Origin: an uncultured Chloroflexia bacterium
GTDB taxonomy: Bacteria; Chloroflexota; Dehalococcoidia; GIF9; UBA5629
Reading direction: 5' to 3'
Length of the DNA stretch: 64,000 nucleotides
NCBI GenBank assembly: GCA_963751585.1
Contig: CAVVVB010000010.1
Location: 1,456 to 65,455 of the forward strand
Under the pieces are notes generated by a model, which saw only the letters and a program-made list of their open reading frames with translations, was not told the DNA's origin and did not search any database. The translations under genes and the position numbers were made by a program. The number at the start of each line of letters is the position of its first letter. The first letter of the stretch is position 1. This document shows, piece by piece, positions 22,264 to 50,289 of this stretch.

Positions 22264-23569
22264 TTACTTGGATGAACCCGCGATAAATTGCTGCCAGTAA
22301 GAGGCCGCCTCGTCTAGGGTGATGGTGTGGAGAAAGACCGGCTGCCCACCGGAAATCTTCTTGGTGGCGTAGCCGACAATCGAGTCAACCGTCCGGTTAT
22401 TGCCCAGGTCCGGCCGGGCAATCATTACGGAGAGACCGAGCGGGCTCTCGAATTTCAGACCATTATCAATCACCGCGGCGACCTTGTCCGTATCCAGGCT
22501 ACCGGCCTGCTGCAGGGCGGTCATCAGACAGCTCCACTGGGCGATACCCTGAATCTCCGGGCCTTCCCACTTGCCGTATTGGGCTAACCAGGCAGCCTTG
22601 AAGTCCTTGGCCTGCTGAGTTAGCGCCGGGTCAAATTCGACAGGCCAGGCACCAGCCATCATCCCCTCCAGCGCCTCGGTGGGAATGAGCTGCGACAGGG
22701 TTCCCGCCGGCGAGGTGCTGCTGCAGAAGAACTGCCCCCGGTAGCCAGCCTGCCAGGCGGCCTTGATGGCCATGGCATCGGAGATGGGGCCCCCGCCTTT
22801 CGGCCTCGAAGACGTCCGGGTTCAGGGTTTTTACCTTGGTACCTATGGCACTCAGGTCGGTAGCGTTGGCCGGGTAGTATTCGGTGTCGGACTGCCGCCC
22901 GAAGGCTTGAATAGTTGCGGCTTCATGAGGGCCAATCTGGTGACCCAGGGCGTTATCCGGGCAGGCGATGACGAAGGTCTTTTTATCCGGGAAGTTCTTG
23001 ATAAACCATCCAATGAGCACCGGCCCCTGGCTGTTAATGAAGTAGGCCTCGAAAGTGTAATGGTTATCCTGGCTTAGCCCGGCCGAGGTCATGGTCGGGA
23101 TAAACAAATCCACCTTGTTAGATTCGGCTGCGGGAATCAAAGGGTCAGTAATCATGTCGTCACTGATGATGAATTTCACGTTATCCTGGTAAATCAGTTT
23201 GTTCTCGGCGGCGATGGCCGTCGTCTGGTCACCGTTGGAATCGTAGACGATAAAATCGATATTGTACTTATCCCCTCCGATAGATATACCGCCGCTTTTG
23301 TTTTCCATATCCTGCATGACCTGCAGCCCGTGCACCATGTCAAGCCCCATGGGCCATCCTAAAAAGGCGACAACACCTATTTTTAGTGTTTTTACGGCCG
23401 GTGTTGTCGGCGCTGCCGGTGTTGTCGGCGCTGCCGGTGCGGTAGTCTGTACCGCCGGAGTCGTGGTGGTGGTCATGGCCGGCGCATGGCAAGCAGATGC
23501 TAGCAGCGTGCCGATAAGCATGATGGCCACAATCAGTCCACCTAACATCGATAGTCTCCCCTTTTTCAT
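22264..23569 (-). CDS. Liv-type (HAAT family, PBP type I) ABC substrate-binding lipoprotein, one apparent frameshift near 22631-22773
   Basis: Signal peptide with lipobox LLASAC, a Thr/Pro/Ala linker (encoded by 21-bp tandem repeats around 23395-23445), then KTLKIGVVAFLGWP and a LivK-like fold. The C-terminal third lies on ORF 22773->22264. Confidence 0.7.
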
Positions 23570-23776
23570 CTTGTCCTCCTTTTTATTATGATTATGGTTA
23601 TTCCCCAGCCAAATAGCTAAATTCACCGGTACCTCCAATTAAAGTAGCTTTACTATTCCATTGAGTGGAATGACATTCCAATATATATGATTTATGTAGC
23701 GAGATTTTATCACACAAATGTTTGTTTGTCAATACCTCGCATTGACTCATAATAAAGGTTACCGAAAGAGGTATCG

Positions 23777-25021
23777 TTGCGTCAAAATTAGTGTTACCGA
23801 AGGAGGTGAAGGTGACACGACGCAGCATAATAGAATACGTGCAGGCACTACGGAGCCGATATTTTGGGGCATCAAGAGAAGAGAAGGGCAAGATGTTGGA
23901 TGAATTTACGAAAGTGACAGGCTGGCACCGCAAGGCGGCTATCAGGTTATTGAATCGGTCAAGCTATCCCAGGACGAGTAAAGGGCGCGGTCGGCCACGT
24001 AAATACGATTCAGAAGCCGCAGAAGCGTTGAAAGCGGTCTGGGAAGCTGGTGACCGGCTGTGCTCCAAACGCCTACAGCCGTTCATACCGGAGATGTTAA
24101 AGGTGCTCAGGCAGCATGGCGAGCAGCGGATCGATGTTGCTATGGAAAGGCTGCTCTGCCGGATGAGTCCGTCCACCATCGACCGGCTACTGCGAAAGTA
24201 TCGTAAGGTGGGAGGGCGAAGAGGACTTACTACCACCAGGACGGGGAGCCTGCTTAAAAGCCTCATACCCATCAGGACCTTTGCCGATTGGCAGGAGAAC
24301 AAGCCCGGGTTTCTGGAAGTTGACTTGGTCGCTCATTGCGGTGAGAGCAGCGAAGGTTTTTATCTGAACACGCTCTGCGCCGTAGACGTGGCCAGTGGCT
24401 GGACAGAATGTCGGCCGGTCTGGGGGAAAGGCCAGGAGCGTGTTGGTGGTGCTGTCCACAAGATACGGCAGCGCTTACCTTTTCCCCTTTTAGGACTGGA
24501 CTCAGACAATGGCAGTGAATTCATCAACCAGCATCTTTTTAGCTATTGCCAACGGGAGAAGGTTACCTTCACCCGCTCCCGTTCCTACAAGAAGAACGAT
24601 AGCTGCCATGTGGAACAGAAGAATGGGAATGTGGTGCGCCGTCTGGTGGGATATGACCGGTACACCTCCAGGGCGACATATCAATGCCTGGAAAGGCTTT
24701 ATGACGGTGTTCGGTTGTACGTGAACTTCTTTCAGCCTACGATGAAGCTGGTGGGTAAGACAAGACATGGCGCTAAAGTGAACAAGGTCTACGATACAGC
24801 ACGCACACCCTACCAGCGATTACTGGAAGCTGGTGTGCTTACTGAAGCTAAACAACCGGAACTGGCAGCCACCTATCACGGGTTAAACCCGGTGACACTC
24901 TTAAAGCAAATAAATAGCCACCTGGAACAGCTATGGCATCTGGCTGAGCGCCCCGCCAGTTTGGGTAACCGGAATTATGAGTCAATAAGGAGGGCTTCGG
25001 TAACAGTTTAATTTGACGCAA
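23777..25021 (+). mobile_element. Complete IS element with imperfect terminal inverted repeats of about 27 bp (left 23777-23803 TTGCGTCAAAATTAGTGTTACCGAAGG; right 24995-25021 CTTCGGTAACAGTTTAATTTGACGCAA)
   Basis: The inverted repeats were read directly, about 25/28 matching. They enclose a single DDE transposase gene. Confidence 0.7.
23791..25011 (+). CDS. DDE transposase (rve integrase-core family; IS481-like or ISNCY-like)
   Basis: N-terminal HTH, catalytic LEVDLVAHCG...LGLDSDNGSEFIN...HVEQKNGNVVRR (D, D, E). An alternative GTG start at 23811 follows AGGAGG. Confidence 0.8.
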   Translation: MLPKEVKVTRRSIIEYVQALRSRYFGASREEKGKMLDEFTKVTGWHRKAAIRLLNRSSYPRTSKGRGRPRKYDSEAAEALKAVWEAGDRLCSKRLQPFIPEMLKVLRQHGEQRIDVAMERLLCRMSPSTIDRLLRKYRKVGGRRGLTTTRTGSLLKSLIPIRTFADWQENKPGFLEVDLVAHCGESSEGFYLNTLCAVDVASGWTECRPVWGKGQERVGGAVHKIRQRLPFPLLGLDSDNGSEFINQHLFSYCQREKVTFTRSRSYKKNDSCHVEQKNGNVVRRLVGYDRYTSRATYQCLERLYDGVRLYVNFFQPTMKLVGKTRHGAKVNKVYDTARTPYQRLLEAGVLTEAKQPELAATYHGLNPVTLLKQINSHLEQLWHLAERPASLGNRNYESIRRASVTV

Positions 25022-25180
25022 TACGTACCTGTAACGGAGATAATGCACTATCTATCTACGCCGATTTTATTAGGTGCTTAATAAGTAGTATAATCTCCTT
25101 ACTTAGTAGGCTGTTCTGTCGGTGATAAGCGCCCTTTCTTAAATTGAAAAATATTTGATAATCATGAGAGAAGGAGGTAT

Positions 25181-26035
25181 ATGCATAATCTAAAAGGCAA
25201 GGTAGCTTTGGTTACTGGAGCGGGCTCCAAGGTTGGCATAGGACATGCTATCGCACTTCGTTTAGCCAAGGACGGAAGCGATGTAGCGGTGAGCGATATT
25301 TCCCTCCGCGGCATTCATAATAATGAATATATCGGTACGGATGACTGGCATGGCCTGGAGGATGTTGGAAGTGAGATAAGAGCCCTGGGAAGAAAAGCTC
25401 TGGTTATTGAGGCGGACATTGGTTCAAACCAACAGGTGCGAGGGATGGTCGCTAAATGTATCGATTTTGGGGGTAAGATCGACATCTTGGTGAATTGTGC
25501 TGCCTTATCAGGGCCGAGGGGTATACCGCCGTTTGAGATTCCTGATAAGGAATGGCGTCGGGTACTGGATGTTAATATCTTTGGCACATATCGGTGCTGT
25601 AAGGCAGTGGGTAGCTACATGATAGAAAGGGGGGCCGGAGGTAAAATAATCAACATTGCTTCGGAGGGGGCGAGAGGTCGGGTAATGCCAGGTCACGGAC
25701 CTTATATTGTATCCAAGTTTGGGATAATAGGGCTGACTCAAGTGTTGGCTGTAGAGTTGGCGAGGTATAAGATAAATGTTAACGCCGTCTGCCCTGGTTT
25801 GACCGCTACCCAGATGGTAGTAATGCCGCCCTCAGAAGGTAACGTTAGCACCGCTGGCTTGAGCTTGTCAGAAGCGGTGACTAAGGTCTATGCCGATTTA
25901 TTACCCCAGATACCTTTAGGCCGTATTGGACAGCCGGAAGATGTCGCCAATGTCGTGGCCTTTTTGGCCTCTAGTGACGCTGATTATATGACCGGTCAAT
26001 CCATAAATGTTACCGGAGGGCATAATATGTCTTAG
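25181..26035 (+). CDS. SDR family NAD(P)-dependent oxidoreductase
   Basis: KVALVTGAGSKVGIG Rossmann motif and the SDR catalytic YxxxK (YIVSK). Confidence 0.85.
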   Translation: MHNLKGKVALVTGAGSKVGIGHAIALRLAKDGSDVAVSDISLRGIHNNEYIGTDDWHGLEDVGSEIRALGRKALVIEADIGSNQQVRGMVAKCIDFGGKIDILVNCAALSGPRGIPPFEIPDKEWRRVLDVNIFGTYRCCKAVGSYMIERGAGGKIINIASEGARGRVMPGHGPYIVSKFGIIGLTQVLAVELARYKINVNAVCPGLTATQMVVMPPSEGNVSTAGLSLSEAVTKVYADLLPQIPLGRIGQPEDVANVVAFLASSDADYMTGQSINVTGGHNMS

Positions 26036-26489
26036 GTATCCTTTTGGCTGATGCTAATGATAATAACCAGCCCGGCAGCCAGGATGACAAAAACTAGCCC
26101 CATCGCCAATCCGCCAAATGTTAATTGCCCAAATAACAAGACTACCTCCTAACAAGGAAGTGATGTCCCTGGTTTTATACTTCTTGAAATTCCGTTCTGG
26201 CCATAATGTCATTCTGGAACTCGGCTTTTTTAAAAGAATCACTGAATACCCACCAGTAAGTGGTGTTATTCAGTGACGTTTCTTATAAAAGCTGCGCTCT
26301 TGTGAATACCTCCCCTAGCTTCTCCTTTATGGGCAGACATCAAACTTAATTCCTGCCCATAATGTTATCCACACTTCAATTATTATAATTTCTTCACGCA
26401 GGTTACAACATTTACCTATAGCTAATTGTCTGACTTCTAGGAAAGCACAAAACCATCGCTAACGAATAGTATCTATCAGTTTTTATTAC

Positions 26490-27785
26490 TTACTTCCAGC
26501 CGTAAAATGTCTTGTTGTATCCGAGCGCCTCATCCAAGGATATTTTGGCAATGATGCTAGCCTTTCCTCCCACCATTTGTTTGATGGCTAGGGAGCCAAG
26601 TGTGTCCACAGTTCTGGTAATTCCCAGATCCGGCCGACTAATCATGATGCTGGGAGAACAGCACGGGCTATCATATTGCAAACCATTGGCAAGCACATTT
26701 GCAACTTTGTCCACATCCAGGCTCCCAGCTTTTTGTAAGGCGGCTATCAGGACATACCAGGCATTCAGTTGCGTGATGTCAGGATCATCCCACTTCCCAT
26801 TTTTAGCTATGTAGGCATCCTTGAAATCTTTAGCAGCGCCGACTGGAGGCGTATCCATTTCTACATCATTCGCGGCAACAATCATCCCCTCCGTGACCTC
26901 TGGCAGAACTGTCTGGTCATAGACAGACGCACCTACCGTACCAGTCATAAAGAATTGTCCCTTCCAACCAGCCTGCGATACGGCTTTGATGATAAGGGGA
27001 TCCGTTACCGGTCCGCCGGCAGTAGGTATGAAAGCATCTGGATTCAAAGTCTTGACCTTGGTACCGACAGCACTAAGATCAGTCGCCGATGGTGGATAAT
27101 ATATTTCATCAAGCATCTTCGGTCCAAAAGCTTCCGACAATTTTTTCAACTGATCACCAAAAGCATGACCAGGCTGGCTATCGGGAGCTGCAAGCACGAT
27201 AGTCTTGATATTCGGGTGATTCTTCACAAACCATCCCCATGCTGTAGGGCTGTTCGTATAGGCCGCGACTGTTCCTTGAAAGGTGTATTTATAATCCGGG
27301 TTAAATATAGTCCCGGTAGCATCTAGACCGATTGCTATTACATGTTCGGGGTCGGTAAGGGAAGCCCAGTAGGCGATAGTATCGTCGCCGACGATGAATT
27401 TCACTTTGTCTACATCCATGAGTCTTGACGCGGCAGAGCGTGATGCCACCTGATCAAATTTGGAGTCGTATATGACTGGCTGGATAGTATATTTCTCCCC
27501 CCCGATATCCAGCCCGCCCTTTGCGTTAATCATATCCGCCTGGAGTTGCACCCCTTTTTCAAACTCAATGCCTAGCGGCCACCCCAAAAAGGCAATGACA
27601 CCTATTTTTAAAGTTTTTGGTGCGGGGGTTGTGGTCTGAGTTACGGGAGCCGTGGTTTGAGTCACGGGAGCCGTGGTTTGAGTTGTGGGCGTTGCGGCTT
27701 TTTGGCATGACACCATAAAAGTCATGCTCAATAGTATTATTGATAGAACCGCCAAACTAATCTCTAGTAGTTTCTTTCTTTTCAT
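26490..27785 (-). CDS. Liv-type ABC substrate-binding lipoprotein
   Basis: Signal peptide plus Cys (MVSCQ), Thr/Pro/Gln linker encoded by 21-bp tandem repeats (around 27636-27700), KTLKIGVIAFLGWP, LivK-like fold. Confidence 0.85.
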   Translation of the reverse strand: MKRKKLLEISLAVLSIILLSMTFMVSCQKAATPTTQTTAPVTQTTAPVTQTTTPAPKTLKIGVIAFLGWPLGIEFEKGVQLQADMINAKGGLDIGGEKYTIQPVIYDSKFDQVASRSAASRLMDVDKVKFIVGDDTIAYWASLTDPEHVIAIGLDATGTIFNPDYKYTFQGTVAAYTNSPTAWGWFVKNHPNIKTIVLAAPDSQPGHAFGDQLKKLSEAFGPKMLDEIYYPPSATDLSAVGTKVKTLNPDAFIPTAGGPVTDPLIIKAVSQAGWKGQFFMTGTVGASVYDQTVLPEVTEGMIVAANDVEMDTPPVGAAKDFKDAYIAKNGKWDDPDITQLNAWYVLIAALQKAGSLDVDKVANVLANGLQYDSPCCSPSIMISRPDLGITRTVDTLGSLAIKQMVGGKASIIAKISLDEALGYNKTFYGWK

Positions 27786-27979
27786 TTTGCCTCTCCTAAT
27801 ATTTTAATTCATATTGTTTAAAAAAATTTATGCAATATATCTACCTCCTTTATATTCCACTTAGCGGAATAGCATTCCACAAAATCTTAAATTTAGAGGA
27901 ATCATATCATAAGGATGTTTATTTGTCAATATTCCATGAAATGGGTCCTGTTCTGTTCACTTGAATTTACATATTCTGG

Positions 27980-28260
27980 AGCTTCCATTACCGCCTTCTG
28001 TTACACCAAGCCAGCTTGTATATCTAAAGCTGGCTTCAGCAACTTTCCCAGGCGTTTTACCGTTCAAGCTCTCATGCGGTTTAAATAAGTTATAGTAGAT
28101 TAACCAGCTAATGTCGCACTCCCAAACTTTGTGATAGGTGTAAATGATAAGATAGAAGAATTAAATCTTAAACAGGGGACTCAAATAGCTAGTTATCGAG
28201 AGGATCTTTATAATGCGGCAGGCCAGTTATTATTAAAATATATTAAATGATTTACAACTC
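27980..28260 (-). pseudogene. Transposase remnant (rve C-terminal fragment)
   Basis: The reverse strand encodes YNLFKPHESLNGKTPGKVAEA, matching the conserved rve C-terminus (RPH.sL...TP). No intact upstream part is present. Confidence 0.45.
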
Positions 28261-28521
28261 GGACGTCAAAGCTGGTGGCAGGCTGATGAATTAACCGATG
28301 AATGGTTCCCGCATCCACCAAAGTTGTGCGCGATTAGGACTCTTTATTTCACTCTATAGCCTTTTAATCTGCCATCTTTAAAGCATATAATTGCACTGGT
28401 ATCACGCCGGGGCGTGGGTTATCGAATCACTTTTTATGGTGAACTTTTACCCTTTTTCCTCTGGCTCTTTGTCATTAAACTTACTATATAAAAACCCTTA
28501 CCATTTTGGAGTTCAGTTTAT

Positions 28522-31135
28522 CTACATACCTCCTTCAACCCAGGCATTAAAGTGAAGTCCGGAAGCTGGGTCATACTCCTTTTCGAATGCCTCAGGGTAT
28601 TGTCTTTTCCACTCTTCCATCTGGGCCATGGTGACCTTTTCAACCTCAACTAAAAATCCACTGGTAACCTGCCCTCCGCAGTTTTTAGAGACTAGACCGG
28701 CTGGAGATATCAGATTATTGGCGCCGCCCCGGTCAAGCTCCCCCGGGATTATCCAGTCACATCTGGCCCCGTGGTCCTGCGAGACCGCTCCGGGCATAAT
28801 TCTCTCCGTGACATAGGCACCGCCGAGGACGGCCCCCCTCTCGTTGTAGATCTTAACGATATCGCCGCTCTTGATGCCTCTCTTTTCCGCATCTTTCGGG
28901 TTAATCCAGATAGGCTCGTACATGTAGCCATCCCAACCCTTAACCTTGCATGTGGGGATTTCCCTTGTCCATGATATATCATCGCACTGGGCATGCATTC
29001 TCCACCTCGGATGGTTAGAGACAATGAGCAAAGGGTACTTCCTGGCTCTTTCTCCGGAAGGTCTTTCGTCATGGGTCTCACCTTTTTCAATCCAGTGCGG
29101 CAGCGGGGGTCTCTCCTTATCATCAGGGAAATATTTGGCCAGTCTCTCCGAATAGAACTCCAGCTTACCGGAGGGTGTGGGCAGAGGGTTGTTCTCGGGG
29201 TCTTTATAGAACTTGAGCATGCCGGCTGGGTTTTTATTCCCAATCCGGGGAGGTTGGGTAGACGTAATATCCCTTTTCGTTAAAGTCTTCCCAGCTGATC
29301 AATTCCGGCAACCTCATCTCCTCAAAGCAATATTTAATCCATTCTTCTACGGTCTTGCCCTGCGTAACCTCATCATACTTGCCTAGCTTTTTGGCTATCT
29401 CCAGGACTATTTCGTAATCACTCTTGGACTCGCCGATGGGCTTGATGGCCTGCTTCTGGAGCGTTATGCTAGAAATATCTATGCCAGCGATATGGTTTGG
29501 CACAATATCGTCTACCTCAAACGTGGTATTCGCCGGCAGGATGATATCCGCGAGCAGACAATCGTTCTCCAGCCACGGGTGCTGGGCGACAATACATTCT
29601 ATCTTGGGGCTTCTGAAGGCTTCTATCGTTTTATTGCCGGCATTCCAGCAGGTAGTCCGGCAGGGGGCATCGCTCCATATCATGTGTATTTCCGTGCCGC
29701 CTTCTTCTTTGGGTAGGGGATAGGTATATTTTACGAACTGGTCTTCAACTCCCGCCGCAACAGCGCCGCTACCATAAAAAGTGAGGGGTGGGTTAAGAAT
29801 GGCCTCCTGGACGAGGGTCTTAGGAATGAATTGTTTTGATGACCTCGTGTGAGCAGAGGCGTGAGGCCTGCGTAGGCGGTCACCTGGCTTGGTTGACGAG
29901 AATGCACTGAGTAAGGCACGGGCGGACCTTGGCGCGGTATCCTTAATTTCGGACATTATTATGGCCTGGTGGACTCCCGGTTTTCCCAGTCCTTGCATAC
30001 CCAGCAAGATACATTCCAATCTAGCGGGTGAATGCGAATACGTTCCCCGGATCATCGAACCGCCGATGATATGGGCTATCGACGTTGCTCTGGCGGCAAA
30101 TTCTCTAGCCAGCGCCTTGATTGTCCATTCCGGAACACCACACTTCGGCGAAGCCCACTCGGGTGTCTTGGGAATACCGTCTTCCCTGCCCAGAACGTAG
30201 TTCTCAAATTTATCGTAGCCGACAGTGTGCGTCGCCACATAATCCTTATCGTAGGTGCCTTCGGTCACCCAAGTATAAGCTATAGCGAGTTGCAGCGCTG
30301 CATCCGTGTTGGGTAGTACCGGGACCCATTTGTCGGCATGGATAGCTGCTCCATAGTTCAAATCGGGGCAAATATATATCTGCTTTATCCCCACTTCGGA
30401 CCAGAAATAGCATAATCGGGTGGCAGATTGCCCGGCAAGCCCCCAAGGTGTTGTTTCTGGATCGCATGACCAGAACAGGACCTGCTCGGAGTTCTCGGTT
30501 ATGTCCTTGATCACATTATCCATTGGCTTCATCATACCGACCCATCCCGTCCCCCACACATGCATTGACCCCCAATACCACCCCTCCCAACTATCGGGAT
30601 TTCTCTGCTGCTGCGTGAAACCACCCAGCGTGTCATGAAGCAGAATTTGACAGCCATGAGGAGCATGGATAATCTTGTCCTCCCCATGTCCATCCGCCTG
30701 CGCCAGAACCGCATACGGTCCATATTTTTCATGCACCCTCTTCAGTTCACTGGCAACTATCCCGGCAGCCTCGTCCCACGAGATTCTCTGATACTTGCTC
30801 TTCCCCCTGTTCTCCGGGTGTCTCTCGCCGTTAGGGTCCCAGTCAACTCTCTTTAAGGGGTACTTAATCCGGTTGGGAGAATAGACTCGCTTTTTGTAGG
30901 CTAGTGAGAAAGGCCCCGGAAGCGATTTCATGACGGGCTCAAAAGTTTTACCATTCCTCTGAAGTTTCCATGGGTTTATTTCCTCCCTGGTATATTTCGA
31001 GTCATAGTGTAACGGTCTAATTCTGATTATTTTTCCATCTTTAATATCAACCGCTGACGGAACGCCGCCTGCAGTGTAACCAGCCAGGCCAAGCGCTCTA
31101 AATACTGTTTTTTCTTTACCTTTTTCGTCTGGCAT
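28522..31135 (-). CDS. Pyrogallol hydroxytransferase (TH) family molybdopterin oxidoreductase large subunit; one frameshift in an A-rich run (AATAAAAACCC) near 29220-29234
   Basis: VDIKDGKIIRIRPLHYD, IKYPLKRVDWDPNGERHPENRG and NPDSWEGWYWGSMHVWGTGW correspond to hallmark blocks of Pelobacter acidigallici transhydroxylase alpha subunit (VKDGKIIRMTPMDFDD, NPDSWEGWHWGGMHMWGFSW). Combined length about 865 aa against about 875. No N-terminal Fe-S Cys motif, as in the TH alpha subunit. Confidence 0.8.
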
Positions 31136-31250
31136 TTCGATCGCCCTTCTTTCTTGAAGAATCTTAACTTACGGCAAAACCTTTCTGCGGGATGCCTATT
31201 ACGCGGCTCGCCCATAAGAGCATCAGCACGGGACTATCATATCAATATTA

Positions 31251-31276
31251 ATTCCGATAGGCGGAATATTATTCCA
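31251..31276. promoter_or_regulatory. Putative operator ATTCCG-N5-CGGAAT-N3-ATTCCA about 120 bp upstream of the TH gene
   Basis: Same three-half-site arrangement as upstream of three substrate-binding-protein genes (23655-23680, 27854-27879, 33473-33498). Confidence 0.5.
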
Positions 31277-31326
31277 GTCCTTCTTGGGGCCAAGAAGGCC
31301 CTCATCAGATTTGAGACTAGGGCGTT

Positions 31327-33232
31327 TTATAAACTCGAGTCGTCTAAACCAAGGGCAGCCAATGTCTCAGAGCGGGGCAATCCGGTCTCTTCATCCCATC
31401 CCCGGAGGCGGTAATACTCCTTCAACATGCTCTTGAATTTATCCCGGTCGAGCATATTACCAATATAGGAGACCGCCTCGTCATTAGGACCAGGCACGGT
31501 GGTCACGTTAGACTCGTGCGTGGCCCGCAAGGGTTCGGTGAAGTTGATCTCAAGGGGGTAGTCAGCTTCGGGGACTACCCGTCCCTCCCGCAGTAGGATA
31601 AGTCTTTGCAGGTTGTAAATACGTTCGGCATACCGGTCAAGCACTTCGCCGGCAATGCCGGTAACCGCGGTAAAGAGCTTGGCGCCGAGGTCGGGGTCCC
31701 CCACATGGTCCGGCGTATTGAAGGAAAAGGTAATGGGGTAGCCGAAATCACACAGACCTAGGCTTTCTTTGAGATAGGTCCTGTTCAGTATTTTTTTCGC
31801 CGCCAGCGCCTTCCCCTCATAGCTGGTAAAATCTCCGGCCGCCTCACCGCCCCAGAAAGCCCTGGCAATATCATGTACCACCTTAGTTGTCACCGGCGTG
31901 CTGCCGGGACGGAGTTGATTCAGTACCCAGGCAGCATAGACAAAGACAATCTCGTGCAGGTAGTTATGATGCACCCTGGGTTCCATAGGGTAGAGCAGCG
32001 CATTGACGAAGAATGCCCGGGGCGGGTTGAAGTCATTCGCCATGATTGGTGCCAGATAACGGGGGAACAGGGCCCGGGCTTTAGCCGATACCCTGTCGCC
32101 AATCCTCACCAGTCCCTCGGCCAGGATATCACCAAACCCCTCACGATAGGCTATCGCATGAATCAGCTCTTTCAGGAATTCTCCGGTGCCGATCTTAGCT
32201 AGCGGCAGGCCAGTCTCCTTTTCGGCAAGAACTCCCGACCGATAGCACTTGTGAAGCCAGTCAATAATGGCCATGAGCTCCCATGTATCTACGGAGTAAT
32301 CGTCAGCCAAGACTGGCGCATCGAAGAATGTCTCTATCGGCTCATCCTCCCGGCCGAAATTCCATGGCCGGTAATAGTCCAAGGACTGGCACTTGCGGAG
32401 GCCTTCCAGCCGCTGGTCATATCGATATACCCCCCTGACGCACTCCATCCCGCAAAGATAGCAGCCACCCTTGCTGATACGCTCCACGGTATGGCCAGGG
32501 GCATAGCCAGGCAATATTCTGAAGTTAGGCAACGACGGATTGGTACCCTTGCTTATCCGGATGGTATTGCGGTTAAGCTCCTTGAGAGCGTCCGGGGTCG
32601 GCTACGGAGATTTTCCCGGTACCCATGATGGCGATGGCTTTTAGATTTTTGGAACCCATGACCGCCCCGAAGCCGGCCGTAAGAGTGCAACCGTGGGAGG
32701 CCAGGGCTATAGCTGTCCTGACCCTTCTTTCGCCGGCCACGCCGGTGGTGATAAAACGCGTCTTTTCACCATGGGTCTGCTGGAGCACCTCTCCCGTCCG
32801 GTAAGCGTTCTGTCCCCACAGCGATGAGGCATCCCGGAGTTCGGCCTCGCCATCGTGAATCCACAGATATACGGGTTTGGGTGCACGTCCCCCAACAATA
32901 ATACCGTCAAACCCTGCCTTCTTCAGCTCCGCGCCGACAAATCCGGCGAAACTACCGTAACAGTAGCCCTCAGGGAGGGCCATCGGGGACTTGCCGACCA
33001 CCGATAACTGTGTCGCCGCTTGGGCTCCAGTTCCCACCAGCGGCCCGGCCATGAAGATAAGCCGGTTCTCCGGGTCAAAAGCCTTGGTCTCCGGTTTTAC
33101 CGTCTCCCAGTAGAGTTTCGTGCCGATGCCACGTCCGCCAAGGAACTTCTCGGCGTATGGTTGTGTTGCGATTTGGGTTATGGCGGCACTACTCAGATTT
33201 ACATGCAGTATCTTACCTACCCAGCCATACAT
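31327..33232 (-). CDS. Aldehyde:ferredoxin oxidoreductase (tungsten AOR family), one apparent frameshift near 32532-32573
   Basis: The N-terminal domain MYGWVGKILHVNLS...FLGGRGIGTKLYWE (ORF 33232->32573) and the catalytic and Fe-S part with CYLCGMEC (ORF 32532->31327) are collinear with the intact paralog at 42828-44702. Confidence 0.8.
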
Positions 33233-33472
33233 ACTTATACCTTCCCTTATTTGACAATATTTATTTTACCAAACCAGTTCTTGGTAAATAGCGGTAATCT
33301 GCCCTTCGGATAAAGCCAAACTTGACCGTCACTGCCGGAGGCTATTACCATCCGCTATGGTGATAATATTATATCTTACATTTTGTCGGCGATGCAATAA
33401 AATGAATGTGTTTTATCTATTGACAAATAAATATCTATATGATAGAATTTCACCTAAACAAATCAAGCATAG

Positions 33473-33498
33473 TGGAATGCCATTTCGCTAACCGGAAT
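33473..33498. promoter_or_regulatory. Putative operator TGGAAT-N3-ATTTC-N6-CGGAAT 128 bp upstream of the substrate-binding-protein gene
   Basis: See finding on the shared motif. Confidence 0.5.
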
Positions 33499-33625: not shown

Positions 33626-34897
33626 ATGAGGCGTCTTTCAATAGCCATATTACTGGCAATAGTCTTGGTAATTTCACTTGTTGTTTCCTGTACTTCAGGG
33701 AAAACATCAACCCCTACCCCTGTCCCAACCCAAACTCAGACCCAAACCCAGACATCTGCTCCGGCAGCCGCTAAGACTTTGAAAATTGGTCTCATTACCA
33801 ACTTAGAATCGCCACTCGACCTCCCCTTTGCACAGGGGTCGCAAGCCATGGCGGATCTAATTAATAAGAACGGCGGCATGGTTATCGGTGGGGACACCTA
33901 TAACATCCAACTGATTGTGTATGACTCGAAGGGCGATGGGGCAACAGCAAAAACCGCCGCACAAAGACTTATTTCCGAAGACAATGTAAAGTTCATACTT
34001 GGTGATGAGACGGCGGATTCCTGGATTCCCCTTACCGAAGCCAGCAAGGTAATCAACATTAACTGCGACGTCACCAACAATATCTTTGACACAAAGAACC
34101 ATTACACCTTCCAGGGAAATGTCGCTAATACGGAAGCGGCGGAACTATGGGGATGGTTTACCCAGAATTATCCGAATCTGAAGACCATGGTCAGTGCCTA
34201 TCCGGATAACGAGATTGGTCACTCCTACGGCGGTCTCGTCAAGAAATCAGCGGCAGCCTTTGGCCTAAATCTGATTGATGAAGAATACTACCCGCCAACG
34301 ACTACCGACTTCAGCAGCCTGGGTGCCAAGGTAAAGAACCTGAACCCGGACTGCTTCCTCGCTCAATACGGGGGTCCGATATCGGATAGTAACGCCTTCA
34401 AAGCTGCCTACGAGGCCGGCTGGAAGGGGCAACAGTTTGCTTCCTCGACGCTACCGACAGATGTTCTAGTGTCCATCGTTCCACCGGAGGCAGTAGAAGG
34501 CATGGTTTGTCTGGCTTGGGCCGATGAAATAGAGCCGCTTGCCGGGGCCGCCAAGGTATTCGTGGATGCCTATACCGCCAAATCCGGGAAATGGGATTGG
34601 CCCGAACTTGTACAATTGAACTCCTGGTACGTTCTTATGGGGGCATTAACACAGGCTAACAGCCTCGATACGGACAAAGTGGCGTCCGTGCTTGCCAGCG
34701 GCATGAAGTACGAGAGCCCCTGTTTTGTTGGCCAAGGCGAGATGGTCAGCCGGCCGGACCTGGGGAATTCACGCACTGTTGATAATATGGGCGGTCTGGC
34801 CATCAAGAAAATAGTGGGTGGTAAGACCCAGATAGTTCATGTCATCAGCCTGGATGAAGCGTACTCCTATAACCAGAAATTCTGGGGCTGGAAATAA
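33626..34897 (+). CDS. Liv-type ABC substrate-binding lipoprotein
   Basis: Lipobox LVVSCTSG, a (TQ)n/Pro linker, KTLKIGLITN, LivK-like fold. Confidence 0.85.
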   Translation: MRRLSIAILLAIVLVISLVVSCTSGKTSTPTPVPTQTQTQTQTSAPAAAKTLKIGLITNLESPLDLPFAQGSQAMADLINKNGGMVIGGDTYNIQLIVYDSKGDGATAKTAAQRLISEDNVKFILGDETADSWIPLTEASKVININCDVTNNIFDTKNHYTFQGNVANTEAAELWGWFTQNYPNLKTMVSAYPDNEIGHSYGGLVKKSAAAFGLNLIDEEYYPPTTTDFSSLGAKVKNLNPDCFLAQYGGPISDSNAFKAAYEAGWKGQQFASSTLPTDVLVSIVPPEAVEGMVCLAWADEIEPLAGAAKVFVDAYTAKSGKWDWPELVQLNSWYVLMGALTQANSLDTDKVASVLASGMKYESPCFVGQGEMVSRPDLGNSRTVDNMGGLAIKKIVGGKTQIVHVISLDEAYSYNQKFWGWK

Positions 34898-35003
34898 AGG
34901 ATAATGTAACCACGTCTGTTTACTGGCAGTAGCGGTCCGTTCTTTATCGGGAAGACACCGCTACTGCCGGTAATTCCACAGCAGAAAAGGCATAGTAACG
35001 TCG

Positions 35004-35879
35004 ATGAGTTTATTTGGCCAGTTAGCCTTTAACGGCTTGGTTATGGGTTTAATTTACGTCATTTTAGCCGCTGGTCTCGTCCTAATCATGAACGTTTCCA
35101 GGATATTCCTTATTGCCTACGGCCAGTTCTATATGATAGGCGGCTATATTGTCTGGGCCGGAGTGACTTTATGGCATCTCCCGTTCTTTATTGCTCTAGT
35201 GATAGCCGTACTAGCTACCGCCATATTGGGACTGCTGAGCTACCGTTTAATCTTCCAGTACGTCCAGTTTGCGAAGAATCAATTTCTGGTAGTTATCGCA
35301 GCTGCCATAGGCCTCATGATGCTTCTCGCCCAGGCTGGATTGATAGTTTTTGGTTCGACGGCACGGGGAGTCCCACCTATAGTCCCGGGCATAACCAGCT
35401 TCGCCGGTATTAGTTTCCCCAATGCCAAACTGGTACTTATCGTGCTAGCCCTTGCCATCACCTTGGCTCTGTTCTGGGTCTATGAGAAGACAAATCTCGG
35501 GCGTGTCATGCGTGCTGTTGCCTTTCTACCGGATGCCGCTTCTCTGCAGGGAATCAATACCCAAAAAATATATTTTATAACCCTGGGAATCGGCAGCGCT
35601 CTTGCCGGCGTCGCCGGGGCGATTATGGCACCAAGCTATTCTCTTAGCCCTGATATGGGCACCAATATCTTTTTGCCGGTGATGTTACTCATGATGTTAG
35701 GAGGGATGGATAGCCTGCTCGGGACAATCCCCAGCGGGCTAGTAGTGGGCTTGACTTTAAGCTTCGGCCAATATTTTATGCATTCTAGCGCGCAGATAAT
35801 TCTTTATTCCGTTATCGGCATCATCATCTTCTTCCGGCCCAACGGGTTGCTCGGGCGCGGCATGAAACTGGGGATATAA
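35004..35879 (+). CDS. HAAT-family ABC permease (LivH-like)
   Basis: About 8 TM helices and LivH-like conserved blocks. Confidence 0.85.
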   Translation: MSLFGQLAFNGLVMGLIYVILAAGLVLIMNVSRIFLIAYGQFYMIGGYIVWAGVTLWHLPFFIALVIAVLATAILGLLSYRLIFQYVQFAKNQFLVVIAAAIGLMMLLAQAGLIVFGSTARGVPPIVPGITSFAGISFPNAKLVLIVLALAITLALFWVYEKTNLGRVMRAVAFLPDAASLQGINTQKIYFITLGIGSALAGVAGAIMAPSYSLSPDMGTNIFLPVMLLMMLGGMDSLLGTIPSGLVVGLTLSFGQYFMHSSAQIILYSVIGIIIFFRPNGLLGRGMKLGI

Positions 35880-36932
35880 GTGACGAAACAGATACTGAAA
35901 ACACTTACAGCGCGCTATAAGCTAATTTTATGGCTCGTTTTAGCTATCATCCTGGTCTTGGCGCCTCTGGTGGTGACCTCTCCATATTATCTCGATATAC
36001 TGATTAAGACAGGCATTAATATTGCCCTGGCGATGACTTTTATCCTCGTGCTGAGAACAGGGCTAATCAATATGAGTATAGCCGCTTTCTGGGGGGCGGG
36101 AGCTTATGCCTCCACCATGCTGGTAATGAGAGCAAACCTGTCCTTCTGGCTTAGTCTGCCCGCGTCTGCCTTGATAGTTGGGGTCATTGCTTTATGCCTC
36201 GGCTTTCTTTTGGTTAGAACTGCCGGCTTTGGTTTTGTCATACTTACCGCGGTAATAGGTATGCTGACACCCGTCATTATTGGCAGTATTGGGGCAGTGG
36301 GCGGCTTCCAAGGTATCGTCGGCATCCCCCCTCCCAACCCTATTCACATTCCCTTCTTAGCCCCGGTAGAATTCGTCTCCAATAGGTCCTTTTACTACCT
36401 CATGCTGTTTTTATTACTATTGGTGATATTATTGTTTTCCGGTCTCTATAAGGCCTGGTCAGGCAGGGCTTGGATGGCCATTGGCCTGAACCCCAATCTG
36501 GCACAATCACTTGGTATCAATATCTTTAAATACAGATTGGCGGTATTTGTGGTGGGCTCCGCGGTCGCTGGGCTAATGGGTAGTTTTTATGCCCACTACG
36601 TGCAGAGCATCACACCTCAAACATTTGACGTTTTTAAGACAATTTATGTACATGTCTACGCTATTTTGGGTGGCCTTGATTTCGCCATTTTGGGACCGGT
36701 ATTAGGCTCGTTTGTGATGACATTCGCCCCTGAGTTGCTGCGCCATACCAGACAGTTTGAGCCACTAATTACCGGCCTAATATTAATACTGATAATATTA
36801 TTCCTGCCTGGAGGAATCTTGAGTCTATCGCGTATACGGCCCGCTTCGAAGCATCTCTCTCAAAGTCTCACCAGTATCGGCAAGGTGATTAAATCCTCGC
36901 TGTCATCCAAGCGAGCTACAAGGAAAGGGTAA
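35880..36932 (+). CDS. HAAT-family ABC permease (LivM-like)
   Basis: LivM-like hydrophobic profile. Start overlaps the upstream stop. Confidence 0.85.
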   Translation: MTKQILKTLTARYKLILWLVLAIILVLAPLVVTSPYYLDILIKTGINIALAMTFILVLRTGLINMSIAAFWGAGAYASTMLVMRANLSFWLSLPASALIVGVIALCLGFLLVRTAGFGFVILTAVIGMLTPVIIGSIGAVGGFQGIVGIPPPNPIHIPFLAPVEFVSNRSFYYLMLFLLLLVILLFSGLYKAWSGRAWMAIGLNPNLAQSLGINIFKYRLAVFVVGSAVAGLMGSFYAHYVQSITPQTFDVFKTIYVHVYAILGGLDFAILGPVLGSFVMTFAPELLRHTRQFEPLITGLILILIILFLPGGILSLSRIRPASKHLSQSLTSIGKVIKSSLSSKRATRKG

Positions 36933-37684
36933 TGCTTAAGGTCGAAAATTTAACCAAAGTTTTCGGTGGGCTTGTTGCCGTTGATGGGGTAAGCCTCGAA
37001 GTCACTGATTCAGAGATATTAGGATTGATAGGTCCGAACGGAGCCGGTAAGAGTACTCTTATCAACCTCATCAGCGCTTTCTACCCTGTTACTAGCGGCA
37101 AAGTGCTCTTTGGAGGACGGGATATAACCCGGCTGAAAGCACACCAGGTAGCCGCGCTAGGCATAGGCCGCACTTTTCAAGCATCAACTCTATTTATGGA
37201 GCTGATCGTTCTTGACAATGTGTTTACCGGGTACCATATGAGCTACCGAACCAATATATTTGGAAGGGTGCTACGCATACCTTCAGCGCTAAGGGAAGAG
37301 GAGACATTGAAACAAAGGACGGTGGAGATACTGGAGTTTATGGGTCTGGGCTCCCTAAGAAACGAACTCGCCAAGAACCTGCCGCACGGTAATCAAAGGA
37401 TTCTCGGTGTCTGCATGGCTTTAGCCATCAATCCTAAATTGCTTCTATTGGACGAACCGTTAACCGGTATGAACCCGATAGAAATACAAACCATGGTAAA
37501 TCTAATCAGACAGATACGTCATAGAGGCATTACCATCGTCCTCATCGAACACAACGTTTCGGCGATTATGGACTTATGTGATAGGATAATAGTATTAAAT
37601 TATGGGAAGAAGCTTGCTGAGGGCTCTCCAAAAGAAATACAGGAAAACGAAGAGGTAATCGATGCCTATCTGGGGAAGGCGTAG
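36932..37684 (+). CDS. HAAT-family ABC ATPase (LivG-like)
   Basis: Walker A GPNGAGKST, LivG-type insertion, LLLDEP. Confidence 0.9.
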   Translation: MLKVENLTKVFGGLVAVDGVSLEVTDSEILGLIGPNGAGKSTLINLISAFYPVTSGKVLFGGRDITRLKAHQVAALGIGRTFQASTLFMELIVLDNVFTGYHMSYRTNIFGRVLRIPSALREEETLKQRTVEILEFMGLGSLRNELAKNLPHGNQRILGVCMALAINPKLLLLDEPLTGMNPIEIQTMVNLIRQIRHRGITIVLIEHNVSAIMDLCDRIIVLNYGKKLAEGSPKEIQENEEVIDAYLGKA

Positions 37685-37693
37685 GAAACACAG

Positions 37694-38407
37694 ATGCTGC
37701 TTGAAATAAAAGATTTGACAGTACACTACGGAGTGGCTGAAGCTTTAAGAGGCATCTCCTTAACGGTTGATGAGGGCTCGGTGGCGACAATTGTCGGAGC
37801 CAACGGGGCTGGCAAGACGACTATCCTGAAAACCATCACCGGTCTGAAAAAGGCGACATCCGGCGAAATATGGTTTCAGGGTAAAAAAATAAACGGTCTA
37901 TCAGTACCCGATGTTGTTAAGCTAGGAATCGCTTATGTACCAGAAGACAAAATGCTTTTCGCCCCCCTAACCGTCTTGGACAACCTGAAACTGGGCGCTT
38001 ATCTCCGTAAAGATAAAGATGGAATAGCTAAAGACCTTGATTCTGTCTACCAGCACTTCCCAATCCTGAAAGAGAAGCGCGGGCAGCTGGCTGGGAATCT
38101 AAGTGGGGGGCAGCAGCAAATGCTGGCCATTGCCAGGGCCTTGATGGCTAGCCCCAAATTACTCTTAATGGACGAGCCGAGCACAGGATTATCACCAATA
38201 TTAGTTGCCGAAGTAGGTAATATCATTAGAGATATTAACCAAGGCGGTATCACGATCATACTAGTTGAGCAAAATGCCCGGATGGCTTTTAAGCTGGCTA
38301 AAAGGGCCTATATCTTACAAGTTGGTAAGATTGTCCTAGAAGGTGATGTCGAGGAATTAGTTAACAATGAGCTTGTGCGGAAGGCTTATCTGGGCGGGAA
38401 AAAATGA
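37694..38407 (+). CDS. HAAT-family ABC ATPase (LivF-like)
   Basis: GANGAGKTT, LSGGQQQMLAIARAL, LLLMDEPS. Confidence 0.9.
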   Translation: MLLEIKDLTVHYGVAEALRGISLTVDEGSVATIVGANGAGKTTILKTITGLKKATSGEIWFQGKKINGLSVPDVVKLGIAYVPEDKMLFAPLTVLDNLKLGAYLRKDKDGIAKDLDSVYQHFPILKEKRGQLAGNLSGGQQQMLAIARALMASPKLLLMDEPSTGLSPILVAEVGNIIRDINQGGITIILVEQNARMAFKLAKRAYILQVGKIVLEGDVEELVNNELVRKAYLGGKK

Positions 38408-38475
38408 ACAGCAAAACAGTCACTTTTTCCTCGATATCCGGAATTTAATAGCAGGGTATAAGGAGTAGTGAACAA

Positions 38476-39231
38476 ATGGAAACGATAGATAGGACATTTA
38501 ATATTCTGGAATTATTCCTTGGCCACCAGGGACCGCTTAGTATTACCGAATTATCCAAATTAAGTGGTTTGAGCCCCGCGGTGACCCATAGGATTGTGAC
38601 CGCCCTACTAAAGAAAGGCTATCTTGTTCAGAAGGAGAAAAGAGGGAAATACTCGCTGGGTTTAAAATTTTTAGACTTCAACTATTTCATCCAGGGGAAT
38701 ATGAAAATCAAAGATATTGCCCACCCACACTTGCTAAAGCTTAGCAAAGAAGCCGATGAAGCTGTTACTATGGGGATTCTTGATGGTAAGGAATTACTGG
38801 TCATCGAGCGGATTGATACTAACCACGACCTGCGCATCGGTGGGGCCATTGGTAAAAGGGCCCCTCTCCACAGCGCCGCTGTTGGCAAGGTATTACTGGC
38901 GCAAATGTCGGCGGCGGAAAGGAATGCAATCATTAATGACAAATCGATTACGGAAAAGTTCACGAAGACTACGATCACGGGAATACGCAGAATGGACAAG
39001 GAGTTAGAATTATTTAGAGCGGAAGGCTGCGCCTATGACCGGGAGGAGATGGCGGTGGGTATCTGGTCCGTGGCGGCGCCGGTTTATGGCGTTACGGGTA
39101 AAATTGAGGCTGGGGTAGCTATTTTAGCTCCCACCGCAAGAGTTACCGAGGAGAAAGCCTTGAGGTGGGCTTCGCTGACTAAGGCATGCGCCGCCAAGAT
39201 ATCCCGCGAGCTGGGCTACAGGGGGAACTAG
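38476..39231 (+). CDS. IclR family transcriptional regulator
   Basis: N-terminal HTH LSITELSKLSGLSPAVTHRIVTALLKKGYL and a C-terminal IclR effector domain. Confidence 0.85.
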   Translation: METIDRTFNILELFLGHQGPLSITELSKLSGLSPAVTHRIVTALLKKGYLVQKEKRGKYSLGLKFLDFNYFIQGNMKIKDIAHPHLLKLSKEADEAVTMGILDGKELLVIERIDTNHDLRIGGAIGKRAPLHSAAVGKVLLAQMSAAERNAIINDKSITEKFTKTTITGIRRMDKELELFRAEGCAYDREEMAVGIWSVAAPVYGVTGKIEAGVAILAPTARVTEEKALRWASLTKACAAKISRELGYRGN

Positions 39232-39309
39232 GGGATTCATTGATTTTAATATCATTTCGAACCAGAGGGATGAAAAATAATAGCATGGAAAACAAAAGGA
39301 GGTCGGTCA

Positions 39310-39995
39310 TGCCGAGCAAAGAATCAGGAGACAAGATCCAGAAATTGGAAGCCAAAATCAGGGAGCTTGAAACCAGGCTCGGGATTCAGGAGGATATCGA
39401 AGATATAAGGCATCTCATGGGGAAATACGAGGTCTGGCACGTTCCGACCAAGGTCACCGAAACGTGGAAGCTCTTTACCATGAAAGAACCGGATGTTTCA
39501 GCGGAGATCGACAATTGGGGCGTTTACGTGGGGCCGGATTCGGTCAGGAAATTATACGAGATAGGCCATGTTGTACCCATTAAGGGTACGATGCACGAGC
39601 ATTACCTGGCCACGTATATCATTCAGGTGGCCAAAGACAGAAAGACGGCGAAGGGTATCTTCTTTTCTCCCGGCCATGAGACCTGGGTACGCGAAGGCGG
39701 GAATATCGCGTCATGGGTCTGGGGCAAGTACGGGTGTGACTTTATCAAGGAAGACGGTGAGTGGAAAATCTGGCATCTGCACTGGTACACGGCCTTCCGG
39801 GCCGACTTTTACAAGAGCTGGCAGGAGGGTTTCAAACTGCCCTTCATGGAGGCGGTGAATGCCGTGGATGCCGGTGAACTGCCGCCGGACAAAGCGACGA
39901 CCTATCACAATCCGTATGCTTTAGATTTTATCCAGAAGGTAGTACCTGACTATCCCGAGCCTTATGACACATGGGATGGCAAGAGCGTGGCGTAA
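39310..39995 (+). CDS. NTF2-like (SnoaL/ketosteroid-isomerase-like) protein with N-terminal coiled coil
   Basis: AAAGGAGG SD before the ATG at 39310. The C-terminus W..WGKYGCDFIKEDGEWKIWHLHWY has an NTF2-fold-like pattern. Assignment is tentative. Confidence 0.45.
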
Positions 39996-40050
39996 GCTGA
40001 TCTCCATGAAGTTAAATAGCGATGCCGCAGATTCGAATCTGAAAAGGACA

Positions 40051-42030: not shown

Positions 42031-42073
42031 ACAAAAGACATTTTAAGGGAGGCGCTCTAAAATAGATAACAGA

Positions 42074-42820
42074 ATGGTGAACAAGGTTGCCATCGTCACC
42101 GGGGGGAACATCGGCATCGGTCGGGCGATTTCCCTGCGCCTGGCGGCCGAAGGTGCCGATGTGACCATCACCGGCCGGGGTTTTGAGGATTGCCAGAAAG
42201 TGGCTGCCGAGGTCGAAGCCCTGGGCCGCAGGGCGCTGCCCATCAAGATGGACGTGGCGATCTATGCGGACGCCGAAAGGATGGCTAGGGAAACGCTGGA
42301 CAAGTTCGGCAAGATAGATATTTTATGTAATGTTGCCGGCGGGCCGGCCCCGGAGCAGAAGCCCTTTAGCGAAAAATCGCCGGAGGTCTGGACACGCGTC
42401 GTGGCCGTCAATCTTTTCGGTCAGTTCAACTGCACCCGCGTCGTCCTCCCCCACATGATTAAGAGACACTATGGCAAAATCCTTAACATGTCCTCTACCT
42501 CCGGGGTGCTGGGTATGTATAACACCACAGACTATGCCGCTTCCAAGGGCGCCATCATCGCCTTCACTGCTTCGCTGGCCAAAGAGGTCGCCCAGCACAA
42601 TATCAATGTCAACGCTATCTCGCCCGGCACCGTTATGACCCGCGGTCTGCAGATGTTCCCGGAGAGGTGGGAGGAATTCAACAAACTGTCCGGTCTGGGC
42701 CGCGTGGGCACACCCGAAGAAATCGCTGCCCTGGCGGCATATCTCGTTTCGGATGAGGCCGGGTATGTCACTGGGCAGAACTATCTGATATGCGGCCTCT
42801 GGAACCTGGGGATGGGGTAG
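42074..42820 (+). CDS. SDR family oxidoreductase (FabG-like)
   Basis: KVAIVTGGNIGIGRAIS, NVAG, YAASKGA catalytic motif. Confidence 0.85.
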   Translation: MVNKVAIVTGGNIGIGRAISLRLAAEGADVTITGRGFEDCQKVAAEVEALGRRALPIKMDVAIYADAERMARETLDKFGKIDILCNVAGGPAPEQKPFSEKSPEVWTRVVAVNLFGQFNCTRVVLPHMIKRHYGKILNMSSTSGVLGMYNTTDYAASKGAIIAFTASLAKEVAQHNINVNAISPGTVMTRGLQMFPERWEEFNKLSGLGRVGTPEEIAALAAYLVSDEAGYVTGQNYLICGLWNLGMG

Positions 42821-42827
42821 CACGGCC

Positions 42828-44702: not shown

Positions 44703-44778
44703 AATAGATTCAATATATGAACCCGTATCATAAAAATTTGACGCTAGCGTGACATCACTTCCTTGTTAGGAGGTAGTC

Positions 44779-45654: not shown

Positions 45655-45656
45655 AA

Positions 45657-46682: not shown

Positions 46683-47434
46683 TACTTCAAGTTAAAGAAG
46701 TAACGAAACAGTTTGGCGGACTGGTAGCCGTGGACAGGGTAAGTTTTGATATCGCCGAATCCGAGATATTGGGGATAATAGGTCCAAACGGGGCTGGTAA
46801 GACGACCATGATCAACGTGATTTGTGGTTTCTACCCGGCTACCGGTGGCAGCATCATCTTCAACGGCCAGGATATCACCGGATTGAAAGCTCACCAGATA
46901 GCACGGCTGGGTATCGGCCGTAATTTTCAGACATCCACCCTATTTATGCCCCTGCCGGTTATTGAAAACGTTTTTACCGGATTCCACTTGACCTACAAAA
47001 CAAGTATCTGGAAAAGACTATTACGCCTACCATCAGCGCTTAAGGAAGAGGAAGCCTTAAAACAGAGGGGAGCGGAAATACTGGATAAGATGGGACTGGG
47101 CCCCTTCAAATATGAATTGACCAAGAACCTGCCGTACGGGCATCAGAGGATACTCGGTGTCTGTGTTGCCCTGGCCACCGATCCCAAGCTTTTAATATTG
47201 GATGAACCGGTGACCGGCATGAACCAAAACGAGATACAGACTATGCTGCAATTAATCAGAGAGATACGGGATAGTGGCGTCACGATCGCCATGATTGAAC
47301 ATAACATGGTAGCCGTCATGAGTATGTGTGACCGGATAATCGTGCTCGACCATGGGCAAAAGATTGCTGAAGGACTGCCCAAAGAGATACGGGAGAACCA
47401 AAGGGTCATCGAAGCCTACCTGGGGAAGGAATAG
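46679..47434 (+). CDS. HAAT-family ABC ATPase (LivG-like), second copy
   Basis: GPNGAGKTT and signature motifs. Start overlaps the upstream stop. Confidence 0.9.
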
Positions 47435-47443
47435 AAATTAGCC

Positions 47444-48154: not shown

Positions 48155-48279
48155 CATCAGTAAAAAGGATACGCCGGTAGAGTTCGACTTTCTTGTTTTT
48201 CTTCCTTTATTCGAATATAATCAGGCTACCCAAATTCAAGAAGTATTATCATTTATAAGGCAGATCAGGAGGAATCGCT

Positions 48280-50283: not shown

Positions 50284-50289
50284 CATCAG

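Follow-up and report, generated by a model that had tools for sequence, protein, structure and literature searches.

Three-box sites as putative operators of an IclR-family regulator in a catabolic island of an uncultured Chloroflexota bacterium

The DNA sites of IclR-family regulators were described by Suvorova and Gelfand (2021; PMC8222616) as a group 1 motif, GKTYCRYW3-4RYGRAMC, with a subgroup WTTYCRYW3RYGRAAW (WTT-11-AAW) that is common to many orthologous groups, and a group 2 motif, TGRAACAN1-2TGTTYCA. In 32 orthologous groups with 199 regulators, that study found three boxes of alternating direction, with one pair of boxes for each motif type, and the preferred site centre in the family was 22 nucleotides (nt) before the start codon. 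The same study also quotes individual systems: PcaU and PobR of Acinetobacter baylyi, whose sites consist of a palindrome and an external repeat, the third repeat being needed for binding (Popp et al. 2002); GenR of Corynebacterium glutamicum, with ATTCC-N7(5)-GGAAT (Chao and Zhou 2013); and the Escherichia coli boxes of IclR, TGGAAATNATTTCCA, and AllR, KTTGGAAWAWTWTTCCAAC. Here, we analyzed a 64-kb stretch of DNA from an uncultured Chloroflexota bacterium (contig CAVVVB010000010.1; hereafter, the window), following up a prediction that four of its sites form a shared operator. Judged by sequence comparison, these four 26-nt sites are very probably DNA operators of an IclR-family regulator encoded in the same window.

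The original prediction had placed the sites upstream of three substrate-binding-protein genes and a transhydroxylase-like gene, and all four were found to be present letter for letter (Table 1). In gene orientation they have the common form YGGAAT-N3-ATTYCR-N5-YGGAAT. A degenerate pattern allowing at most two mismatches matched exactly four times in the window, compared with 0.05 matches expected from shuffles, and four matches were reached in none of 100 shuffled versions of the window. A weight matrix built from the window sites together with related sites scored the four operators at 31 to 36 bits across the 64 kb, and the next independent match, ranked after overlapping reverse readings of the same four operators had been set aside, stayed below 10 bits, the level of shuffled sequence. 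All four lie upstream of genes in the sense orientation, and the expected distance of 70 to 130 bp is borne out by the distances to the start codons. A degenerate fifth copy, suggested near 21400-21440 in front of a decayed copy of the transhydroxylase-like gene, did not materialize: the weight matrix gave no positive score anywhere in 21290-21740.

Box direction alternates (forward, reverse, forward) in all four window sites as well as in 13 sites of relatives, which are described below. Boxes 1 and 2 form a TGGAAT-N3-ATTCCR palindrome resembling the E. coli IclR-box or group 2 type, boxes 2 and 3 form an ATTCCR-N5-YGGAAT palindrome of the group 1 type, subgroup WTT-11-AAW, and boxes 1 and 3 are direct repeats 20 bp apart. 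The boxes of the group 1 pair fit the published consensus in all four window sites, and the inner spacer fits it fully in two of the four. The group 2 likeness extends to the length and the outer five arm positions (TGRAA / TTYCA), while the four inner positions differ, with T for C, A for G and a free spacer. As for a possible fourth box, sequence next to the window sites has no more than weak AT..R similarity at the position of a box 0 and nothing at that of a box 4.

The window contains a single IclR open reading frame (ORF), whose product of about 250 aa combines an N-terminal HTH_IclR with a C-terminal IclR_C domain and has its best structural match, over the full length, in Thermotoga maritima IclR (1mkm, E 5.7e-34). 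A MarR protein, which had been proposed as another local candidate, has no gene among the window ORFs scanned against Pfam. Homologues 59 to 80% identical to the window IclR protein come from metagenomes and metagenome-assembled genomes only. Comparing eight orthologue loci (L002, L004, L005, L007, L129, L130, L131 and L132), we found strong three-box sites in all except L130, amounting to 13 sites of 20 to 33 bits in about 97 kb. Seven of the 13, one per strong locus, lie 8 to 19 nt before the IclR start codon; the other six precede a DctP (TRAP) gene (twice), an SBP_bac_5 gene (twice), a Liv-type binding-protein gene and an SDR gene. In L130, the IclR gene is located within an operon, as it is in the window, and a weak three-box site precedes the first gene. 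The IclR gene and the motif thus share a locus in the window and co-occur with orthologues in relatives, and since the motif accompanies this regulator across differing transporter classes, we regard it as a regulator-operator signature. The orthologue in L007 (P0019) has the recognition helix SRTATHR rather than SPAVTHR, Arg-Thr-Ala replacing Pro-Ala-Val at the start of the helix, and both sites of that locus (7629-7654 and 7766-7791) read GTTCCG instead of ATTCCR in box 2; these two changes are a hint of possible protein-DNA co-variation in one lineage.

The association reaches well beyond these relatives. Scanning one bacterial genome per species with YGGAATNNNATTYCRCNNNNYGGAAT gave at least 120 exact matches in at least 119 loci from many phyla, and the ORFs of the matched loci were searched with a profile built from IclR homologues. 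Among the matches listed, 75 of 120 have an IclR-family ORF no farther than 1.5 kb away, and for most of these the distance is below 150 nt; 70 of the 75 are located at the 5' end of the IclR gene, of which 54 share its orientation and 16 face a divergent gene. The other 45 have no IclR neighbour, 21 of them being too close to the end of the locus to judge. Many Bradyrhizobium and related Alphaproteobacteria (L013-L128) carry a perfect three-box site at two conserved loci: in one, it lies 10 to 20 nt before an IclR start codon, and in the other, it separates an IclR gene from a divergently oriented gene. The same grammar of operators has thus been deeply conserved, across phyla. As a control, 80 metagenomic loci with transhydroxylase homologues (617 kb) were free of IclR ORFs and of sites scoring at least 17 bits. 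Taken together with the published consensus types and three-box class, the orthologue loci and the cross-phylum adjacency support the proposal that a shared operator puts the binding-protein genes together with the transhydroxylase-like gene under one regulator, for which the IclR protein had been named as a candidate.

In members of the Bacillus safensis group (L085, L108 and L118) and in Acidaminobacter (L083), a fourth box is present upstream, giving ATTCCA-N5-TGGAAT-N3-ATTTCA-N5-CGGAAT. Such four-box sites consist of a pair of group 1 palindromes whose centres are spaced by 20 nt, and three-box sites may be tandem sites of this kind minus the outermost half-site.

Table 1. Putative operators, predicted promoters and genes in the window
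Feature	Coordinates	Strand	Details
Operator 1	23655..23680	minus	TGGAAT-gtc-ATTCCA-ctcaa-TGGAAT (gene sense); 33.9-34.6 bits; 84 nt 5' of start codon
Operator 2	27854..27879	minus	TGGAAT-gct-ATTCCG-ctaag-TGGAAT (gene sense); 35.3-35.7 bits; 68 nt 5' of start codon
Operator 3	31251..31276	minus	TGGAAT-aat-ATTCCG-cctat-CGGAAT; 31-33 bits; 115 nt 5' of start codon
Operator 4	33473..33498	plus	TGGAAT-gcc-ATTTCG-ctaac-CGGAAT; 31-32 bits; 127 nt 5' of start codon
Predicted sigma-70 promoter, binding-protein gene 1	23704..23732	minus	TTGACA-17-TAAAAT, TG before -10; 11/12 matches
Predicted promoter, binding-protein gene 2	27901..27929	minus	TTGACA-17-TATGAT, extended -10; 11/12 matches
Predicted promoter, ABC operon	33420..33448	plus	TTGACA-17-TAGAAT, extended -10; 11/12 matches
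Liv-type substrate-binding protein gene 1 (Peripla_BP_6)	22264..23638	minus	two overlapping ORFs, split by frameshift
Liv-type substrate-binding protein gene 2 (Peripla_BP_6)	26490..27785	minus	431 aa
Pyrogallol-hydroxytransferase-like (transhydroxylase-like) molybdopterin enzyme gene	28522..31135	minus	Pfam; PDB 4v4c_A, E 4e-111
Liv-type ATP-binding cassette (ABC) transporter operon	33626..38407	plus	binding protein, two permeases, two ATPases
IclR-family regulator gene	38476..39231	plus	251 aa; HTH_IclR PF09339 (E 9e-14) and IclR_C PF01614 (E 6e-43)
Ten co-directional downstream genes	39186..51060	plus	SnoaL-like, two OYE-type reductases, two SDRs, AOR, second permease/ATPase set

Operators 1, 2 and 4 follow near-consensus promoters of the form TTGACA-17-TRTGnTAnnAT, and a promoter scan of 18.5 kb returned as its three top sigma-70-like matches exactly those preceding these operators. 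When the four upstream regions were aligned, the same three sites were also found to have TATTGACAAAYAAAYAT...TRTGATAnnAT in common. From the end of the -10 element to box 1 there are 23 nt at operator 1, 21 nt at operator 2 and 24 nt at operator 4, and the same arrangement recurs in 16 of 17 clade sites as TTGACA-17/18-TAnnnT with the -10 element ending 15 to 24 nt before box 1 (19 to 24 in all but one). If transcription starts about 7 nt after the -10 element, the operator would span about +13 to +43 of the transcript. The binding-protein paralogues are merely 41 to 49% identical to each other; the promoter and operator blocks have therefore been kept by selection and are not remnants of recent duplication.

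Operator position and promoter quality suggest repression rather than activation. In this scenario, IclR, probably as a tetramer, would block RNA polymerase or its escape at the promoters of the three binding-protein genes, and a small-molecule effector bound by the IclR_C domain would release IclR from the operator; the transcription starts, the oligomeric state and the effector are what we infer in this model. Because the IclR gene is the sixth gene of the operon behind operator 4, the regulator would also repress itself via that operator.

So positioned by the predicted promoters, the motif could alternatively act as RNA in the 5' leader, folding into two mutually exclusive hairpins (box 1-2 or box 2-3) that serve as an attenuator, a stability element or a protein-binding switch. 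Where the hexamers of the four window sites deviate from full complementarity, the change is indeed always G-U-compatible on the sense strand. In the relatives and in 92 distinct cross-phylum sites among the matches listed, however, A-C mismatches equal G-U pairs in frequency and the outer positions change independently of each other, and 16 of the 75 IclR-adjacent sites among those matches face away from the IclR gene. No intrinsic-terminator-like site was seen at or just downstream of the four sites, which are not followed by a T-run, and the motif is associated with a DNA-binding protein family. A cis-regulatory RNA was likewise rejected as a class assignment, with an Rfam gathering scan of the window matching one tRNA only, leader folds no more stable than shuffled sequence (z-scores of -0.96 to +0.32) and no covariation. 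An exclusive action as RNA is thus highly improbable. It is conceivable that the same 26 nt acts twice, as a DNA site for an IclR tetramer and as an RNA hairpin pair tuning message stability or translation, because in 16 of the 17 clade sites the operator is placed within the transcribed leader and its spacing from the promoter hardly varies, but we hold this combination to be very unlikely.

The surroundings of the sites are rich in mobile DNA, and the sites might be ends or fragments of a dispersed mobile repeat, such as a miniature inverted-repeat transposable element (MITE) or the terminus of an insertion sequence (IS). An IS with its transposase gene lies 60 nt from operator 1, more transposase genes are located at 12527-13912 and 14400-15359, and a tandem or dispersed repeat accounts for some of the listed matches in Lewinellaceae and other Bacteroidetes. 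Yet the inverted repeats of the IS exclude the motif, and the copies resemble each other only over the promoter (32 nt) and the 26-nt operator, beyond which the flanks do not align. Moreover, the sites occur solely upstream of genes and in one orientation, and none was found in the 617 kb of control metagenomic DNA. The original prediction had named membership in a dispersed repeat such as a MITE as grounds for abandoning it; with no extended similarity between the copies, this check came out negative, and an origin from a mobile repeat has an almost vanishing probability.

The IS itself (23741-24986) encodes an rve-type transposase (ORF 23791-25011), is bounded by 27-nt terminal inverted repeats (23741-23767 and 24960-24986), and is located 9 nt upstream of the -35 element of the promoter of binding-protein gene 1. 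The Lewinellaceae and other Bacteroidetes matches (L015, L029, L032, L063, L099 and L100) fall into a tandem or dispersed GGAATGGTATTCCGCGCCCCGGAAT-type repeat with no IclR gene nearby; this repeat is an unrelated family that matches the motif through its own symmetry.

Operator 3, located between an AOR gene and the transhydroxylase-like gene, is a full-strength site before the latter gene in this genome. Conservation upstream of orthologues, the check that had been proposed for the motif, held for IclR and transporter genes in relatives and failed for transhydroxylase homologues, none of whose 80 metagenomic loci has a site upstream of the homologue. Only in L133, a close relative whose gene is 81% identical, is there a partial remnant: CGAAAT-AAT-ATTCCC aligns to boxes 1 and 2 and is the best-conserved stretch of the upstream region of that gene. 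Operator control of the transhydroxylase-like gene appears to be lineage-specific. Operator 3 also lacks the promoter common to sites 1, 2 and 4 and is preceded by a GC-rich hairpin after the AOR gene. TGATATGAT sits just downstream of operator 3, and TTGATATGAT, which follows the operator, looks like an extended -10 element by eye and was not picked up by the promoter scan.

Several points weigh against assigning all four sites to the IclR protein of the window as a repressor. Upstream of the transhydroxylase homologue that is closest to the window gene (L002, at least 90% identical), there is no site, and operator 3 has no recognisable promoter upstream of it, so that its mode of action may differ from that of operators 1, 2 and 4. 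The source genome is absent from the matches listed, and its site counts cover the 64-kb window, which bears on the full regulon and the background rate. Furthermore, IclR proteins can also activate (PMC8222616), and the motif is generic to a large IclR subgroup, such that another IclR paralogue elsewhere in the genome could bind.

The last two points lead to a rival in which the sites are IclR-type operators that are either bound by another paralogue encoded elsewhere or used for activation. The breadth of the WTT-11-AAW subgroup across orthologous groups, the use of the exact pattern by unrelated IclR proteins from Bradyrhizobium to Chloroflexota and the occurrence of both activators and dual regulators in the family (PMC8222616) would all be in keeping with it. 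Nevertheless, the 64 kb contain a single IclR gene, orthologues of its product consistently co-occur with the motif in eight loci, also before their own gene, and near-consensus promoters with operators downstream of the -10 element fit repression. We consider both versions of this rival unlikely and retain the IclR protein encoded in the window as the probable repressor.

Within the ABC operon, the fifth ORF (37694-38407) was assigned via its counterpart in L001, which is called ABC_tran. The IclR gene starts 68 nt past the last transporter gene, no operator is present directly 5' of it (weight matrix at 38400-38480, best score 0.1 bits), and it appears to be co-transcribed with the ABC operon. 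The sixteen co-directional genes at 33626-51060 are separated by intergenic gaps of at most 125 nt and have one strong promoter and operator, at the front; the weight-matrix scan of the window detected no further operator within the downstream part. We infer that the genes of this part probably belong to the same long transcription unit as the ABC operon, and the whole of 33626-51060 may be a single 17-kb unit holding the regulator gene.

The product of binding-protein gene 2 is 49% identical to the binding protein encoded at 33626-34897, and its gene includes three tandem 21-nt repeats (27623-27685) encoding a repeated TQTTAPV linker after a lipoprotein-like signal sequence. The second Liv-type permease/ATPase set (44779-48154) comes without a binding-protein gene of its own, and the two orphan binding-protein genes each have a promoter under putative operator control, which suggests that several binding proteins share the Liv-type transporters.

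The best solved relative of the transhydroxylase-like protein, PDB 4v4c_A, is the large subunit of pyrogallol hydroxytransferase. The transhydroxylase-like gene of the window is broken into two ORFs, of 633 and 232 aa, that are not in the same frame; homologues are 867 to 871 aa long. The AOR gene (31327-33232) is likewise in two reading frames, and a second transhydroxylase-like copy (18700-21300) is heavily decayed, with 72 to 78% nucleotide identity to the first. The frame breaks of these two genes and of binding-protein gene 1 fall near 29220-29236, 32532-32573 and 22631-22773, respectively. Either the island is eroding and all of these, the decayed copy included, are real pseudogenes, or the broken frames are errors introduced by a long-read assembly. 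The window ORFs scanned include no gene for a gentisate dioxygenase. Further downstream, a tRNA gene on the minus strand (61893-61965) overlaps with a plus-strand phage-type integrase ORF (60839-61954), and an element integrated near the catabolic island may have its boundary here.

If the assignment holds, a single IclR repressor would govern three Liv-type binding-protein genes, an ABC importer and a transhydroxylase-like molybdoenzyme, and probably also a 16-gene reductase/oxidoreductase array; a catabolic island in an uncultured anaerobe would then have a confident regulator-operator assignment. The substrate of the island becomes experimentally approachable, as the effector should be that substrate or an early intermediate. 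The predicted promoter-operator unit also offers a compact, strong, repressible cassette, and the sites provide a natural set of clean three-box operators. The three-box layout could reflect two alternative modes of IclR dimerisation, which have been proposed but never demonstrated; if these exist, the four near-perfect natural sites would be a clean system for showing them.

Among the systems introduced above, PcaU is an IclR-family protein that controls aromatic-acid catabolism and uptake, and its site has a palindrome with an extra repeat, as the window sites do. The PcaU boxes are of the GTTCGAT type with 10-bp repeats, and PcaU mostly works as an activator or a dual regulator, bound upstream of the promoter. 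GenR, a regulator of IclR type for the catabolism and transport of aromatics (3-hydroxybenzoate/gentisate), uses the ATTCC / GGAAT half-sites with the N5 spacing of window boxes 2 and 3. It belongs to another phylum and both activates and represses, and the covered text reports no fixed three-box arrangement; the comparison with GenR is one of half-site sequence. The E. coli IclR and AllR boxes, as quoted there, are 15-bp palindromes with TGGAA...TTCCA arms that agree with boxes 1 and 2 in length and in the outer five positions, the arms of TGGAAATNATTTCCA being identical to those of the window TGGAAT-N3-ATTCCR, and both proteins are repressors. Their quoted consensus lacks a third box, and their regulons are the glyoxylate shunt and allantoin.

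As in the published three-box class, sites are placed 5' of the gene for the regulator and 5' of neighbouring operons for catabolism or transport. Those sites of relatives that precede the IclR gene itself have their centres mostly some 22 to 25 nt ahead of its start codon (some 32 nt in L002), near the maximum at -22 that the study reported. The three-box IclR operator and the half-site sequence are thus already in the literature, and the locus holds no new regulatory principle. It differs from that class in that the clade of the window regulator comes from uncultured organisms, seemingly outside the 320 genomes of that study, in that position 6 of the window box is T/A rather than C/G, and in that the window operator takes a fixed position downstream of the -10 element of a conserved strong promoter.

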